43,537 nucleotides of DNA from Ktedonobacterales bacterium (GTDB lineage: Bacteria; Chloroflexota; Ktedonobacteria; Ktedonobacterales; JADMIN01): contig JANWHL010000104.1 of assembly GCA_025450405.1 (NCBI GenBank), positions 1-43,537 of the forward strand, in the 5' to 3' direction. A program made the position numbers and the translations under genes. Under the pieces are notes generated by a model. That model saw nothing but the letters and a program-made list of their open reading frames with translations. It was not told the DNA's origin and ran no database searches. Of the stretch, positions 29,622 through 36,427 are shown piece after piece. Every line of letters begins with the position of its first letter. The stretch's first letter is position 1.

Positions 29622-29684
29622 GCCGCACCTCCCGCGCCCCGTTGCGGTGGGGTCGCGCTACCAGGACGTCTGCCTGTCGTGGAG

Positions 29685-29713
29685 AGTATACGGCAGGCGG
29701 CGCGCTCCGTCAA
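29685..29713 (-). promoter_or_regulatory. promoter candidate, TTGACG-17-TATACT, for the KGG stress gene
   Basis: Minus strand reads TTGACG (29713-29708), a 17-nt spacer, TATACT (29690-29685). Predicted leader of about 55 nt. Confidence 0.5.
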
Positions 29714-30181
29714 GCGTGCGCCGCCCGCAATCTTGAGTCCTCGCTACAGTCCGGGTGCAATACCTGCCGAAAGGGAGCCTCGCCGGTGAACTCCGTCGCA
29801 GCCAGAGCCCACTCGCGTACACTCCCACTCGCGCGCCCCCGCCACGACTCTCGGGGCATCTCCTCGGTGGGCCACCATGCTTGCCCCTGGAGGGGACACT
29901 CGCCGCGCACCCCATCACTTGCGCACCCCGCTCGCCAGCCAGGATTAGTCGCGGAACTTCAATTCCGCAGGCGTCCCCAGCCAATCCGCCCGCCTTTGGC
30001 GGTCACGCACATCCGCGTGTCGTGCGGTCACCTACCGCTAATTCGCTCTTCAGTTGAAATCGAATGGGCGCACGGATGCGCGCCCGACGCGCGCGGCGCC
30101 CACCGGCGCCGCACGGTTGCGCGCCTTTCTCCCGCTCCATACCAGGCTGGCTAGCCCGACCACCCTTCATCCGGAGGGCGG

Positions 30182-30190
30182 TGGTATACT
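30182..30190 (+). promoter_or_regulatory. extended -10 promoter candidate (TGgTATACT) upstream of the HerA-family module
   Basis: TG at 30182-30183 and TATACT at 30185-30190. There is no good -35. Lies about 95 nt upstream of ATG 30284. Confidence 0.3.
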
Positions 30191-30283
30191 CAGTTGGAGG
30201 ACGCCAGGTTGCCGCCCGGCGGCGCGGAAAATGGCCGCGCGGGGCGTGACACGCGGTTGCGTGCGCGGGTTCGGGAGTGCGGC

Positions 30284-31141
30284 ATGAGCACGAGCGTTGA
30301 GCTGGGCAAGATCGTCAAGTCAGACTCGCACGTCCGCTACGTCTGCCAGATCTTTGGCGAAGGCGAGGTGGCCGCGCCACCGCGTCCGGTGGACTTCGCG
30401 TTTGGCAGCTTCGTTCGTGTGCCCCTGCGGGCCGACGAACTGGCGCCGTCGGCCACCTTGAGGGCGCCCGAGGCGGCGGACGTGGCGGCGCTGGAGCATG
30501 TCGGAGCGGGGATCGCGGACGCGCTCGCGCCCAAGGACGCCGACGCGCGTGCCTGGGCCATCGGCGTGATCTTTGATACCATCCTGGTCAATCCGGCGTT
30601 TGGCACGCTGGGCCCGAGACTTTCCAATGACACCCAGGTGGCACTCTTCTCGCCGGACTACCTATCTGAGCGCGCCGTGCTTGTTTCGATCATGCTCCTG
30701 GGCACGTTGTCGGCAACCAACCCCGCGTACGGAGTGAGCGGAGTGAATGGCACCGGCGGCGCGGGACCTCATGGGGGGCGCATTGATCCGGTCGCGCTGA
30801 CACGCCCGCGGCGCGGAGGCGGCGCGGCAACGCCGGCGTACGTGGTTCGCCACGGCGTACCGGAGGTAGCCCCTGATCTGGGGGCTGTGGTGTCAACACT
30901 CTCCGAAATTGATCTGCGCGCCTTCCATCACTTCGCCGATGGCGGCGCCCCGGGTGGCAGCGCGACGTACTTGCACATGGGCTATCTCCCGCACATCATC
31001 GCCCAGGACCACCCCCTGCTGCCGATTGTCGCCCTCCAGATCATCGAGCGGCTAGAGCGAGCGTTTCCGGCCAACACCGCGCTCCTCGCGATCGTCAAGC
31101 GGAATTTCGCCTGGCGGCTAAAGGTACAAACCGCCGGCTAA
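30284..31141 (+). CDS. hypothetical protein; possible HAS-barrel-like N-domain; partner of the downstream HerA-family ATPase
   Basis: ORF 30194-31141. Start moved to ATG 30284 (SD GGGAG 6 nt upstream). 285 aa. No P-loop, and I could not find a NurA-type DGS motif, a SIR2 GAGxS motif or an obvious PD-(D/E)xK. The N-terminus parallels the barrel of the next gene by eye. Confidence 0.6.
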   Translation: MSTSVELGKIVKSDSHVRYVCQIFGEGEVAAPPRPVDFAFGSFVRVPLRADELAPSATLRAPEAADVAALEHVGAGIADALAPKDADARAWAIGVIFDTILVNPAFGTLGPRLSNDTQVALFSPDYLSERAVLVSIMLLGTLSATNPAYGVSGVNGTGGAGPHGGRIDPVALTRPRRGGGAATPAYVVRHGVPEVAPDLGAVVSTLSEIDLRAFHHFADGGAPGGSATYLHMGYLPHIIAQDHPLLPIVALQIIERLERAFPANTALLAIVKRNFAWRLKVQTAG

Positions 31142-31174
31142 CCATCATGTTGCGGGAGAGAGCGAGCGCCATAC

Positions 31175-32956
31175 ATGGCTGACCCTGACTCGACACCGGT
31201 AGGCATCACCAAGGGACCTGGAGAGACGATCCACGAGTATACGTTCATCTCGCGGGATGAGCACCGCCTGCTGAAAAACGGCGAATACGTCTATTACCAT
31301 ATTGGCCAGATCGGCGCGCGCGACCAGGGCGCCGGTGATGGTGAGCCATCGAGATCCAATGGGGACGGCGGCCCGGCGCGGCAGGTCCTGGGGCGCATTC
31401 AGCGACGGGTTCCCGTCCAGCTGTACCCGGACACGTTTCTCTCCGAGCCAACGGTCCCGCCCAGCCAGGTGGCGGCGCTCGTCGGATACGACGAGCTGGC
31501 GAACGATCTCTTCGAGCTGCATGTGGCAATCCTGGGGTACTACGACGCGGACCTCGGAACGTTCGTCAATCCGTGGATCCCGCCAGAATCGGGGATGCCG
31601 ATCTATTTGGCCGAAGATGACGCGTTGGCGCGTGTGTTGGGCAAGAAGCGCGCCGGCGAGTTCGGCGGCGCCCACATCGGTTCGTTGCTGACGCGAGCCG
31701 AGGGCGCGGTGCCCGTGGTCCTCGATGTCAAGGAGCTAGTGAGCACGCACTTGGCCATTATCGCCAGCACGGGAGCGGGCAAGAGCTATCTGGCGAGCGT
31801 GATCATCGAGGAGCTGATGCGGCCGAACAACCGTGCGGCGGTGCTGATCGTGGACCCGCACGGCGAGTACGGGACGCTGCAGGATATGCCCAACCACCCG
31901 GCGTTCGCCGAGGAAGCCGGCGCGGCACCTGGCGCCGCCAATGGGCGCACGGCGCGTCCGCACGAGCGGTATCGCGCGCAGACACGGGTCTATCTGCACG
32001 ACCAGGTCAAAGTGCGCCTCTCAACCCTGGACCTGAGTGACCTGCGGTATCTCCTACCAGACCTGACAGAAAAGCAGCACTACTTCCTGGGTCGGGCCTT
32101 CAATAACCTGAAGAGCGCCAAGAAGGGGCAGCCGTGGTCGGCCGCGGAGCTCAAAGACGCGGTGCTCGCCCTCAAGCGCGAGGCCAATGAGGAGTACGGC
32201 GACGACAGCGGCAACAGTACGGCGGCCGCCCTGGGCTGGAAGATTGAGAGTCGGCTCGGGGACCGCAACAGCATGGTCTTCGACACACACCAGCACCTCG
32301 ACCTCCGCGAGATCTTCCGGCCCGGCCAGTGCACGGTCCTTCAGCTCAACGAGGTGGACGAGCGCGACCAGACGGTCATCGTGGCGACACTCCTTCGCCG
32401 ACTCTTCCACGCTCGGCTGGACACCGAGCGTGGCAAGGTGCGGGATGGCGACGAACAGTACCTGCCCTATCCCGCCTTCGTGCTCCTTGAAGAGGCGCAC
32501 CACTTCGCCCCACACGGGCAGGAGGTGGTGAGCACTCGCCAACTGAAGCAGGTGTTGGCCGAGGGCCGCAAGTTCGGCATCGGGGTCGGACTGATCAGCC
32601 AGCGCCCGGGCAAATTGGATCCAGATGTGCTCAGTCAATGCCTGACGCAGTGCATCATGCGCATCGTCAACGACGTGGACCAGAAGAGCGTGGCGACCGC
32701 CGTTGAAGGCGTTGGGCACGATCTGCTAGGCAACCTGCCTGCTCTCTCCAAGGGGCAGGCGATTGTGGCGGGCAGCGCCGTCAACACGCCGGTCATCTGC
32801 CGGGTGCGTCCCCGCATCACGCCGCACGGCGGCGAAAGCAAGGATGCCCCTGAGGAGTGGCGGCGCTTCTTTGGATCGGAGCAGGTGGCCGCGCGGGCGC
32901 GAGAGGCCGCGCCGCTGGCCCGCGATGACAAACCGTTCTCCATCTTCAAGCGCTGA
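31175..32956 (+). CDS. HerA/FtsK-superfamily ATPase (DUF87/HerA-like helicase)
   Basis: N-terminal barrel-like region, Walker A IIASTGAGKS (aa 195-204), Walker B FVLLEEAHHF, GLISQRPGKLD, and C-terminal GQAIVAGSAV. 593 aa. Starts 33 nt after the upstream gene. Confidence 0.88.
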   Translation: MADPDSTPVGITKGPGETIHEYTFISRDEHRLLKNGEYVYYHIGQIGARDQGAGDGEPSRSNGDGGPARQVLGRIQRRVPVQLYPDTFLSEPTVPPSQVAALVGYDELANDLFELHVAILGYYDADLGTFVNPWIPPESGMPIYLAEDDALARVLGKKRAGEFGGAHIGSLLTRAEGAVPVVLDVKELVSTHLAIIASTGAGKSYLASVIIEELMRPNNRAAVLIVDPHGEYGTLQDMPNHPAFAEEAGAAPGAANGRTARPHERYRAQTRVYLHDQVKVRLSTLDLSDLRYLLPDLTEKQHYFLGRAFNNLKSAKKGQPWSAAELKDAVLALKREANEEYGDDSGNSTAAALGWKIESRLGDRNSMVFDTHQHLDLREIFRPGQCTVLQLNEVDERDQTVIVATLLRRLFHARLDTERGKVRDGDEQYLPYPAFVLLEEAHHFAPHGQEVVSTRQLKQVLAEGRKFGIGVGLISQRPGKLDPDVLSQCLTQCIMRIVNDVDQKSVATAVEGVGHDLLGNLPALSKGQAIVAGSAVNTPVICRVRPRITPHGGESKDAPEEWRRFFGSEQVAARAREAAPLARDDKPFSIFKR

Positions 32957-32966
32957 CGGTTAGCCC

Positions 32967-33401
32967 GTGGCCCGCGCCAGAGTGAGGAGGCTCACGTTGC
33001 TGCGCCTGGCGGAAGTCGCGAGCCTGCTGGGGGCGCTCCCACGCGGCGCGCGGCGGCATCCTGCCCTGGTTCGCGCCGGGGCGGCCTGGGTTCCGCCGCT
33101 GGTATACGCCCATGCCGTCCCACCGCGCGGCTGGCTCGCCATCTCGATCGGCGGCGCGCTCCTCTTGGTGGCGCTCGTCTGGACGCTCGTCCCGTTGGTC
33201 CGCGCGCTGGGAGAGCGTCTATTATGGGAGCTGCCACGTGAACGCGAGCGGCGACTGGCGCGCCGCCAGGGCCTCATGCTGGCCGTGCTCGTGGTGGCGA
33301 ATCTGGCGCTGGCGGCCCTGCGTGTCTGGACACCATTGCTCGCCGCGGTGACGATCGCTTTCGTCGTGGCGGAGGCGGTGTGGGCCTGGCGGCGAGCTTA
33401 A
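32967..33401 (+). CDS. small hypothetical membrane protein (3 predicted TM helices)
   Basis: GC3-rich frame. GTG 32967 lies 10 nt after the HerA stop. A better start may be in-frame TTG 32997, which sits 6 nt after SD GAGGAGG (32984-32990). Helices are WLAISIGGALLLVALVWTLVPLV, LMLAVLVVANLALAALRVW and LLAAVTIAFVVAEAVWAW. Its TAA shares a palindromic TTAA (33398-33401) with the convergent gene's stop. Confidence 0.45.
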   Translation: MARARVRRLTLLRLAEVASLLGALPRGARRHPALVRAGAAWVPPLVYAHAVPPRGWLAISIGGALLLVALVWTLVPLVRALGERLLWELPRERERRLARRQGLMLAVLVVANLALAALRVWTPLLAAVTIAFVVAEAVWAWRRA

Positions 33402-34904: not shown

Positions 34905-35846
34905 TCAGCCAAGAAAAATCCGTGCTCGGTCGAGCATGTCGAACGGATGCCAGAACGTGAGAAAGACGCGCTCGGCGCCGAGGCGCTCCCACCGGGCCAG
35001 CGATCCGGCGAGGTCGTCGGGCCAGTCCCAAACAAACACCGAGAGCGCGACCTGGCGTCCCGCGGCGGCGATGGCGTCTCGTGCTCGCCCGATGAGTTCG
35101 TCGTCGGCGTAGACGTTGATCTCGTCCGCGTAGGTCACGGCGTCGCGCAGCAGGCGCGGCGATCGCCCGACACCCACGACCACCCGCGGCGGAGCGGGCG
35201 GCGCGGGTACCGCGGCCGCCTCGACGAGGTGGAGATGCTCGCCGGCGAACGTGACACGCTCACCACTCCAGATGTGGCGCAGGACTTCCACGGTTTCGCG
35301 CAGGCCGGTTACGCGGGCCATGGCGTCCGGTACGGACTGGCCCCAGGCGCGGGCCTCTTCGAAGAAGTCCCCGGCACCGATGCCCAGCTCGAAACGACCG
35401 CCGCTGAGCCAGGACAGCGCCGCCGTTTCCTTGGCAAGCACGCCGGGCAGGTAATTCAGCCGGTCGATTACCATCGGCACGAGGTGGATGCGCGTCGTCG
35501 CCAGGGCGAGCGCGCCGTAGAGTGACCAGCCGCAGAGGTACGGCCATTCCAGCTTGTCCGCGTGGTAATGATCGAGGAAGCCGACGGCCTCGAAGCCCGC
35601 GGCGTCGGCCGCGCGGGCGGCCCCCAGGATGGCGACGCAGTCGCCCGTCGGCCCCAGATTGACCCCGATACGTATGGCGCGCCTCCGTTCCGGTGAGTCC
35701 CGATTCAGGATAGTCCCCGACGCGGGACTTCGCGGCCGTAGGCTTTGTAGGGGCGTTCGGTTGAACGTCCGTGTTCTTTCAACCGCCCGGGCCACCTTCT
35801 CACCACGATTTGGTATTAGACCTATGCGCTCGAACCCGCGATCCAT
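34905..35846 (-). CDS. LLM-class (luciferase-like) F420/flavin-dependent oxidoreductase; start uncertain
   Basis: Core is IRIGVNLG...FELGIGAGDFFEEARAWG...ERVFLTF. ATG 35846 would add 57 Arg-rich residues and overlap the upstream gene by 25 nt. A GGAGG (35686-35682) sits 6 nt before an ATA codon (35675-35673), exactly where family members usually start. Confidence 0.75.
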   Translation of the reverse strand: MDRGFERIGLIPNRGEKVARAVERTRTFNRTPLQSLRPRSPASGTILNRDSPERRRAIRIGVNLGPTGDCVAILGAARAADAAGFEAVGFLDHYHADKLEWPYLCGWSLYGALALATTRIHLVPMVIDRLNYLPGVLAKETAALSWLSGGRFELGIGAGDFFEEARAWGQSVPDAMARVTGLRETVEVLRHIWSGERVTFAGEHLHLVEAAAVPAPPAPPRVVVGVGRSPRLLRDAVTYADEINVYADDELIGRARDAIAAAGRQVALSVFVWDWPDDLAGSLARWERLGAERVFLTFWHPFDMLDRARIFLG

Positions 35847-36301
35847 GAGCGCAACGCCTCAACATGCTCGGGGTAGTGCCCATAGGTGTCCACCGCGATG
35901 GCTTCGATGATCGCATCGGATGCCAGCACGGAGTTTGGCAGGTCGGCGATCATCGCTAACACTTCCGCGTGCGCCGCGTGGAACTCGGCCCGGACCTCGG
36001 CCAGCGGCCGGTCGCGATTCTCGGCGTAGACCTCCGCGTTGACGTGATTCACCACCGGCTCCCAGTTCCCGTCGTCCGGCGCCAGATCGTCACGTCCCGT
36101 GCGCAGCCGCCGAACCGCGTGACGCTCCCACCATGCGATGTGCGCCAGCGTGTCCTTGGCGGTCCACTCGCCGTTCACTCCTGGGACGAGCATCCGCGCG
36201 TCGTCCAGCCCAGCCAGCATCTCGTCCAGCGGCCGATAGCTCTCGCGAATTCGCTCGGTGACTTCGGCCCCGCGATTTGTCGATTCCAACGCCGTCTCCA
36301 T
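35822..36301 (-). CDS. DinB-superfamily / ClbS-DfsB-like four-helix-bundle protein
   Basis: ORF 35822-36424. Start moved to ATG 36301 (METALEST). The upstream (IDARV)6 is just the 15-bp tandem array read in frame from a GTG inside the repeat. Contains GEWTAKDTLAHIAWWERHAV and DTYGHYPEH. Confidence 0.7.
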   Translation of the reverse strand: METALESTNRGAEVTERIRESYRPLDEMLAGLDDARMLVPGVNGEWTAKDTLAHIAWWERHAVRRLRTGRDDLAPDDGNWEPVVNHVNAEVYAENRDRPLAEVRAEFHAAHAEVLAMIADLPNSVLASDAIIEAIAVDTYGHYPEHVEALRSWIAGSSA

Positions 36302-36327
36302 TCGTGCTCGTCGAAGAGCGCTCGCCG

Positions 36328-36427
36328 CGATCACGCGAGCGTCGATCACGCGAGCGTCGATCACGCGAGCGTCGATCACGCGAGCGTCGATCACGCGAGC
36401 GTCGATCACGCGAGCGTCGATCACGCG
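36328..36427. repeat. perfect 15-bp tandem repeat (CGATCACGCGAGCGT), 6 full copies plus a 10-nt partial copy
   Basis: Units start at 36328, 36343, 36358, 36373, 36388 and 36403, with a partial copy at 36418-36427. All full copies are identical. Each carries a GATC site and the mini-palindrome ACGC-GA-GCGT. Confidence 0.97.

Follow-up and report, generated by a model that had tools for sequence, protein, structure and literature searches.

A DUF8166-HerA gene pair of Ktedonobacterales is most likely the split-off HerA half of a NurA-HerA end-resection system

Introduction

Among archaea and bacteria, HerA-NurA is the counterpart of end-resection machines. To our knowledge, all characterised and solved HerA-NurA complexes consist of HerA and NurA only. 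HerA is a hexameric DNA translocase, and the ring formed by its HAS-barrels is the face where the NurA dimer docks (PMC9960219). The herA and nurA genes cluster with mre11 and rad50 in thermophilic archaea, and Haloferax volcanii is without HerA and NurA (review PMC7776575). Here we analyse a three-gene HerA module, A-B-C, in a 43,537-nt stretch of DNA from a Ktedonobacterales bacterium (contig JANWHL010000104.1). This whole stretch is referred to as the window.

Gene B of the module encodes a HerA-family ATPase, gene A a protein of family DUF8166 and gene C a small predicted membrane protein. A first-pass annotation had read the module as a HerA system that dispenses with NurA and uses A as a new class of effector. 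That reading did not survive comparison with related loci: NurA is encoded directly 5' of A in other lineages, and the order Mre11-Rad50-NurA-DUF8166-HerA occurs on haloarchaeal megaplasmids. The window most likely carries the split-off HerA half of a NurA-HerA end-resection system together with an extra, non-catalytic barrel subunit. The A family is already catalogued in Pfam as a domain of unknown function (DUF) and the parent system is of a known kind; this is not a new effector class.

Results

DUF8166 and HerA form an obligate gene pair

The open reading frame (ORF) list gave A, B and C at the coordinates proposed in the first-pass annotation, with the same 33-nt gap between A and B. The three genes and the motifs of B are as follows.

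30284..31141, + strand: gene A, 285 aa, from the ORF list; homologues start at the same Met
31175..32956, + strand: gene B, 593 aa, HerA/DUF87 hexameric-translocase-type ATPase of the DUF8166-linked subfamily
31763..31786, + strand: Walker A of B, ASTGAGKS, residues 197-204; aligns to the P-loop of Thermococcus kodakarensis HerA
32483..32506, + strand: Walker B/catalytic-Glu of B, LLEEAHHF, residues 437-444; aligns to VEEAHIF of T. kodakarensis HerA
32594..32611, + strand: ISQRPG of B, residues 474-479, arginine-containing motif of HerA/FtsK ATPases; aligns to VSQRPS of T. kodakarensis HerA
32997..33401, + strand: gene C, 134 aa from TTG 32997; the alternative GTG 32967 gives 144 aa

We pooled 81 distinct A loci from single-homologue look-ups and one metagenome scan with a 17-sequence alignment. 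A B-type HerA lay directly 3' of A, on the same strand, in 67 of the 68 distinct loci having at least 400 nt after A, which bears out the co-occurrence of A and B anticipated from the window. The gap between the two genes had a median of 40 nt. Overlaps of 4-5 nt were seen in some loci, and the Asgard and haloarchaeal junctions overlapped by 4-11 nt. We observed that the pair was retained down to 20-30% identity in A. The HerAs 3' of DUF8166 in Asgard, low-GC and haloarchaeal loci, from three phyla, shared 36-41% identity with B along their whole length (E 1e-110 to 1e-151). They are far closer to B than any solved HerA is, and thus form a coherent subfamily with it. Given this near-universal adjacency, A and B are an obligate pair. 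No NurA adjoined A-B in 52 of 55 Ktedonobacterales loci.

Single loci showed further neighbours of the pair. On an archaeal contig (L010, 3840-8470; GCA_041890195.1), DUF8166-HerA followed an Arf/Ras-type small GTPase gene and two V4R-domain genes; no NurA adjoined the pair, and the neighbours were Asgard-like (UQ_con, JAB, SAMP2, Arf/Roc GTPase). A complete Ktedonobacterales genome (L001, 8837-9358; CP126532.1) had an extra 173-aa ORF without a family match between DUF8166 and HerA. The gene just 5' of A in many close relatives (L018-L024, L027, L028, L035, L040, L043 and L045), absent from the window, encoded a low-complexity protein without a family match, in which a conserved RPxPRPxRFRR motif is followed by a single hydrophobic helix and a tail rich in Pro and Thr. 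Two upstream clusters (c7 and c44) were considered as conserved partners and set aside as low-complexity single-pass proteins that had no matches and are absent from the window. The downstream GT9, MoxR and DUF58 genes were rejected as partners because they represent ordinary synteny.

NurA, Rad50 and Mre11 are linked to the pair in other lineages

NurA was encoded with DUF8166-HerA in L005/6, L008/9, L012, L025/26, L098, L099 and L101, and the NurA genes 5' of the A homologues were separate ORFs. The order NurA-DUF8166-HerA was found in a Helarchaeota metagenome-assembled genome (MAG), in L005/L006 and in the Ktedonobacterales-type locus L025/L026, whose A is 59% identical to that of the window and whose NurA matched Pfam at 3.3e-29. 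In L008, a contig of 33% GC, a Rad50/SbcC-like ORF was followed by NurA, DUF8166 and HerA.

A protein search of plasmid records revealed DUF8166 on four haloarchaeal megaplasmids, and the haloarchaeal proteins have the family motifs. Three of the megaplasmids had a readable upstream region: L098 (CP002989.1), L099 (NZ_CP119991.1) and L101 (NZ_CP084885.1). The annotated order on these was metallophosphoesterase, SMC-family ATPase, NurA, hypothetical protein (DUF8166) and DUF87/ATP-binding protein, with stop and start codons mostly overlapping. As judged from this gene order, the haloarchaeal cluster is the classical mre11-rad50-nurA-herA cluster of archaea, except that nurA and herA are separated by one additional gene. 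Flanking the clusters were genes for DEAD/DEAH and UvrD/REP helicases, PLD-family proteins and transposases. At L005 (3269-6851; 61% GC), NurA-DUF8166-HerA adjoined Tn7/Mu-like transposition genes (Mu-transpos_C, TniB/AAA_22).

We searched for further NurA proteins with the L025 NurA and obtained at least 780. The best 120 were 54-84% identical to the query, its own cluster excepted, and every taxon name given among these 120 was Ktedonobacterales. HerA was absent near NurA in all three NurA loci examined. In two of the three, a Rad50-like SMC_N ATPase and a membrane protein were encoded 5' of NurA; in the third, NurA stood alone among ribosomal and tRNA-related genes. No Rad50-like gene was found in the window. 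The C-terminal ATPase part of the Rad50-like protein in L097 was 52% identical to the ORF 5' of NurA in L008, which ties the split and unsplit arrangements together. Because Ktedonobacterales commonly have separate NurA loci without HerA, and full clusters exist elsewhere, we take the window to carry the HerA half of an operon that has been split. For the window itself this is inferred from other Ktedonobacterales genomes, in which NurA is known at another locus.

The Ktedonobacterales NurA operon (L097, 4531-5919; L096, 4293-5970) encoded the Rad50-like SMC_N ATPase, a ~460-aa protein and NurA. The ~460-aa protein had N-terminal hydrophobic helices and was present as two ORFs in L096. No Mre11-type phosphoesterase was called near NurA in L096 or L097. 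The NurA half, like the HerA half with C, would thus include a membrane protein.

Gene A has the predicted fold of a HerA barrel

Gene A had no match in the local Pfam (E ≤ 1), NCBIfam, PADLOC or PHROG libraries, including NurA (PF09376), SIR2 and DUF4297, in agreement with the earlier view that it is none of these three. A protein that is 99% identical to A over the full length (P0001) and all 120 listed homologues are tagged PF26500, which is DUF8166. We assigned A to PF26500 through this near-identity, the PF26500 model not being in the local Pfam copy. The A family comprised 211 clusters at 50% identity among 1.84 billion cluster representatives, and most members were 190-250 aa long. We found no homologues of A in phage genomes. 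A search of the literature library available to us returned no mention of DUF8166/PF26500, nor of such a third protein in HerA-NurA systems.

In a 58-sequence alignment of the family, G140, F214 and H215 were invariant and P124, D125, E129 and Y234 were near-invariant. The His/Asp cluster of A that the first-pass annotation had pointed out (H231, H237, D242 and H243) was not conserved. Neither the library scans nor this alignment gave an ATPase motif, a catalytic cluster or a family match in A. With no library match and no conserved catalytic-looking cluster, we rejected A as a NurA, SIR2, DUF4297 or other effector; of the two roles first proposed for it, effector or adaptor, only the adaptor is still tenable.

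An AlphaFold2 model of A, built on the same alignment, had a predicted local distance difference test score (pLDDT) of 81 and a predicted template modelling score of 0.80. It placed beta-barrel strands within residues 6-144 and 186-205, flanking insertions, and a C-terminal helical domain at residues 208-284. The disordered, lineage-specific insertions lay at approximately residues 50-89 and 145-185. The Gly-rich stretch, initially taken for a linker between domains, is one of these two insertions; it is specific to close relatives of the window, absent from most homologues and located within the barrel, and it was modelled as disordered (pLDDT < 50 at residues 154-174).

We compared the model with the PDB using Foldseek. 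The top 50 matches were all HerA chains (best E 1.4e-5), among them T. kodakarensis HerA-NurA, SIR2-HerA, Sulfolobus HerA, Deinococcus HerA and DUF4297-HerA. The model of a compact 195-aa homologue from the Helarchaeota MAG (pLDDT 93.5) also had HerA as all of its top 50 matches, with 66 matches at E ≤ 1e-3. This homologue aligned to HerA over 130-150 columns with a root-mean-square deviation (rmsd) down to 2.8 Å and a TMq of 0.42-0.50. Over both models, the best values were E 1.1e-6, rmsd 2.8-5 Å and TMq up to 0.50. A search of PDB sequences with the A-family profile gave no matches. These data suggest that A is, at the level of the predicted fold, a stand-alone HerA-type HAS-barrel with a short helical domain and without an ATPase. 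A 448-aa protein (P0193) was considered as a natural A-B fusion, which could have served as a proxy for interaction, and was rejected; it resembles a chimera containing Isochorismatase and RapZ_C rather than a fusion to HerA.

Gene B is related to HerAs of NurA-HerA systems

Gene B matched Pfam DUF87 at 9e-40, over the cut-off. The motifs ASTGAGKS, LLEEAHHF and ISQRPG, on which the first-pass annotation had based its view of B, were all present. Their cores (G/K/S of Walker A, EEAH and QRPG) were invariant in 46 B-family sequences, and the other positions were nearly so. As judged from these intact motifs, B is a competent HerA/DUF87 ATPase.

The best NCBIfam model for B was the double-strand break (DSB)-repair helicase_HerA (1e-59, 202 bits). 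Anti-phage HerA models scored 99 bits (HerA_antiphage, 3e-28) and 83 bits, and the model of the DNA-import ATPase CedD scored 73 bits (2.3e-20); coupling-protein models also scored. B is not an equivalog of DSB-repair HerA (NF040819/NF040937, 202.5/153.8 bits versus cut-offs of 970/800), and all of its NCBIfam matches, repair and anti-phage, were far below the equivalog cut-offs. Many PADLOC HerA models also matched B (best 4.7e-45). The closest solved relatives were T. kodakarensis HerA (4e-49) and Sulfolobus HerA (1.5e-37), both of NurA-HerA systems. On these comparisons, B is closer to archaeal repair HerAs than to anti-phage HerAs. The phmmer alignment of B to solved HerA began at about residue 110. 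From its full-length homology to solved HerAs, B is expected to carry its own N-terminal HAS-barrel.

Gene C encodes a lineage-restricted membrane protein

GC content at third codon positions (GC3) was 0.79 in A, 0.82 in B and 0.83 in C. This is the level of real genes in this genome, which indicates that all three are coding. The GC3 of C, a Shine-Dalgarno sequence and conserved homologues directly after B identify it as a real gene.

32984-32990, + strand: Shine-Dalgarno sequence of C, GAGGAGG, 6 nt before TTG 32997

This sequence, together with public gene calls that give C 134 aa, makes TTG 32997 the likelier start of C.

The C family is ~121 aa long and has four hydrophobic segments. Only three of them are strongly hydrophobic in the window copy, and the first description of C as having three transmembrane helices was not confirmed. 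Conserved motifs were AW, FVPP, RxALRQG, NLxLxALHSW and E..L.RK. We observed no match of C in Pfam, NCBIfam, PADLOC or PHROG. Its hydrophobic segments mark C as a small multi-pass membrane protein.

C lay directly 3' of B in 27 of the 39 loci with room for it. The genes beyond C varied by locus (GT9-MoxR-DUF58, others, or a convergent lipoprotein-like gene in the window). That C is kept with B while the genes beyond differ suggests linkage rather than mere synteny. The B-C adjacency claimed for the window therefore extends across several downstream contexts; it is limited to Ktedonobacteria-type loci, the only ones in which C was found, and C is missing from 12 of the 39. C was absent from every NurA-linked, Asgard and haloarchaeal locus. 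Confined to one lineage and missing from a third of its loci, C appears to be accessory and not part of the conserved core. In L001 (11148-11384; CP126532.1) a DUF2905 small membrane protein was found in place of C.

The module lies in housekeeping DNA

The GC content of the window was ~67%, flat through the module and its flanks. The closest named relatives, from the homologue search with gene A, were Ktedonobacterales MAGs. The flanking genes were housekeeping genes, as had been noted at first: PlsX, a response regulator, an epimerase, a KGG/LEA-like stress protein and rpsT, and further a luciferase-like oxidoreductase, a DinB-family protein and a flavin reductase. The stop codons of C and of the convergent lipoprotein-like gene share a TTAA at 33398-33401, as described.

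The first-pass annotation had also given the module its own extended -10 element.

30182..30190, + strand: possible extended -10 element, TGgTATACT, read from sequence; ~94 nt 5' of the gene A start codon

The element is present. A consensus scan found no -35 hexamer paired with it on the + strand, and TGgTATACT is only plausible as the promoter of A-B-C. The -10 hexamer TATACT was common to the promoter-like sites of the KGG gene and rpsT and to this element. The space between the KGG/LEA-like gene and A (29622-30283) was unusually long, at ~660 nt, and contained a GC-rich hairpin with a T-rich tail (- strand, 30085-30066). An Rfam scan of the window detected three tRNAs only, with no match in 29622-30283.

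A perfect 15-nt tandem repeat, CGATCACGCGAGCGT, was located at 36328-36427 (6.7 copies, 100% matches), in the gap before the flavin-reductase gene. It reads MIDARVIDARV... on the - strand, at the annotated 5' end of the DinB-family ORF (35822-36424).

Discussion

A non-catalytic partner of a repair-type HerA

On balance, our data suggest that A is probably a non-catalytic partner of a repair-type HerA, with NurA supplied in trans. A-B would be the motor half of a variant NurA-HerA DNA-end-resection machine that is genetically linked to Mre11/Rad50 in other organisms. In this two-protein core, the ring ATPase B would translocate DNA, and A would be its non-catalytic barrel partner. The operon would be split in this Ktedonobacterales-type genome, with NurA, often with a Rad50-like ATPase, at another locus; DUF8166-HerA would have stayed together and acquired the small membrane protein C.

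A may bind HerA in roughly stoichiometric amounts and form a layer at or near the barrel crown, either stacked on it or intercalated. NurA docks on this HAS-barrel crown, so A would be expected to act there and could adapt or regulate how NurA or other partners dock and how DNA enters. C may tether or localise the complex at the membrane in Ktedonobacteria. The docking geometry of A is less certain than the overall reading.

Several observations weigh against this interpretation. Neither tblastn with seven NurA sequences nor a hidden Markov model search of the six-frame translation detected a NurA gene or relic in the 43.5 kb of the window, the 660-nt gap 5' of A included. The first-pass annotation had aligned A residues 5-145 by eye to B residues 8-125 and took this to suggest that A carries a HAS-barrel without an ATPase. 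The fold of both A models agrees with that suggestion, and the alignment itself was not supported: the best BLASTP match between A and B had an E of 1.4 and lay at other positions, and hhalign of the A family against the B family gave a probability of 0.4%. The argument for a common origin of the two barrels thus comes from the fold and not from the sequence. No Pfam HAS-barrel matched residues 1-172 of B at E ≤ 1. As a membrane protein, C does not fit a purely soluble end-resection machine. The megaplasmid setting of the haloarchaeal clusters would also suit a mobile or defensive role. Lastly, the search pattern skewed the locus survey towards Ktedonobacteria-like soil contigs.

A more specific proposal, which we put forward tentatively, is that DUF8166 could be an integrated fifth subunit of a distinct Mre11-Rad50-NurA-HerA machine of Asgard archaea, haloarchaeal megaplasmids and Chloroflexota. 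Here it would form a 'pseudo-HerA' barrel ring between the HerA motor and NurA and change how DNA ends are fed. In mycelial Ktedonobacteria the operon would be split and the motor half coupled to the membrane via C.

Alternative explanations

We consider it unlikely that A-B-C is a membrane-anchored, NurA-independent DNA translocation device, with C as anchor or channel and A as an assembly adaptor. Such a device could move DNA between hyphal compartments or spores of mycelial Ktedonobacteria, or serve import or export. It would account for the retention of a conserved multi-pass protein directly after B despite varying downstream genes, for the different small membrane protein (DUF2905) at the same place in L001, for the scores of B against CedD and coupling-protein models, and for the N-terminal hydrophobic helices encoded in the Rad50-like/NurA operon of L097. 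However, the repair HerA score of B is well above its CedD and coupling-protein scores, C is lacking in 12 of 39 loci and in all NurA-linked, Asgard and haloarchaeal ones, and the window has no other secretion or conjugation genes nearby.

A similarly low probability attaches to A as a pseudo-subunit that joins or caps the HerA ring, chiefly to hold it inactive. A would then be a regulator without an ATPase, or a chaperone of assembly, and not a bridge to NurA. The fold evidence for a HerA-type barrel without an ATPase fits this role as it fits a NurA-linked one, and the tight, often overlapping A-B junctions suggest co-translation. In addition, the absence of a neighbouring NurA in most Ktedonobacterales loci, and in the Asgard-like L010, indicates that the A-B relationship needs no NurA in cis. 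In complete clusters, however, A is placed between nurA and herA, which a bridging role fits at least as well.

It is very improbable that the module is an anti-phage system combining HerA with an effector, the new effector being A or C: the many PADLOC HerA matches of B, the SIR2-HerA and DUF4297-HerA complexes among the matches of the A barrel, and the transposition genes at L005 and helicase and PLD-family genes beside the haloarchaeal relatives would suit it, but A and C have no PADLOC or PHROG match, A has no conserved catalytic residues and no phage-genome homologues, B is closer to repair HerA, the setting is housekeeping DNA of uniform GC without any sign of a defence island (PADLOC, flanking genes), and synteny of the locus is conserved across many Ktedonobacterales contigs, as expected of vertical inheritance.

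The reading of the window as the HerA half of a NurA-HerA system has consequences beyond this locus. An extra gene between nurA and herA in three distant lineages, copying the NurA-docking domain, would imply an undescribed architecture or control layer of the HerA-NurA motor-nuclease machine. It gives a Pfam domain of unknown function a role that can be tested, and predicts an undescribed end-resection subunit across Asgard archaea, haloarchaea and Chloroflexota. For a lone locus of HerA with an unfamiliar partner, it also suggests looking for NurA elsewhere in the genome before a new effector system is called.

Comparison with known systems

Like the HerA of the HerA-NurA systems of Sulfolobus, T. 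kodakarensis and Deinococcus radiodurans, B has the full length and the intact motifs of a HerA, and the solved proteins closest to it belong to such systems. As in the archaeal mre11-rad50-herA-nurA cluster, NurA is encoded in related loci in one operon with a Rad50-like ATPase and an Mre11-like phosphoesterase. Unlike in HerA-NurA, DUF8166 precedes this HerA subfamily, between nurA and herA when both are present, and none of the characterised complexes is described with such a subunit. The window also differs in having no adjacent NurA and a membrane protein after herA, and B, at 202 bits, falls far short of the repair HerA equivalog cut-off of 970.

Every solved HerA resembles the predicted fold of A in its N-terminal part (rmsd down to 2.8 Å over ~130 columns). 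In contrast to the HerA barrel, A is a separate polypeptide that lacks a RecA-like ATPase domain, has its own C-terminal helical domain and shows no detectable sequence similarity.

The module shares with SIR2-HerA (Nezha) and DUF4297-HerA a HerA hexamer with a dedicated partner gene in a compact operon; in those systems the partner docks on the barrel face. It differs from them in that its partner A has no effector domain and in that its context is housekeeping and apparently vertically inherited; B also scores lower against anti-phage models than against repair models. CedD (crenarchaeal Ced system) and Thermus TdtA likewise place a HerA-like ATPase next to a small multi-pass membrane protein, and B has a weak match to CedD. 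That match is far weaker than the match of B to repair HerA, and C resembles no described family and is lineage-restricted, which sets the module apart from both.

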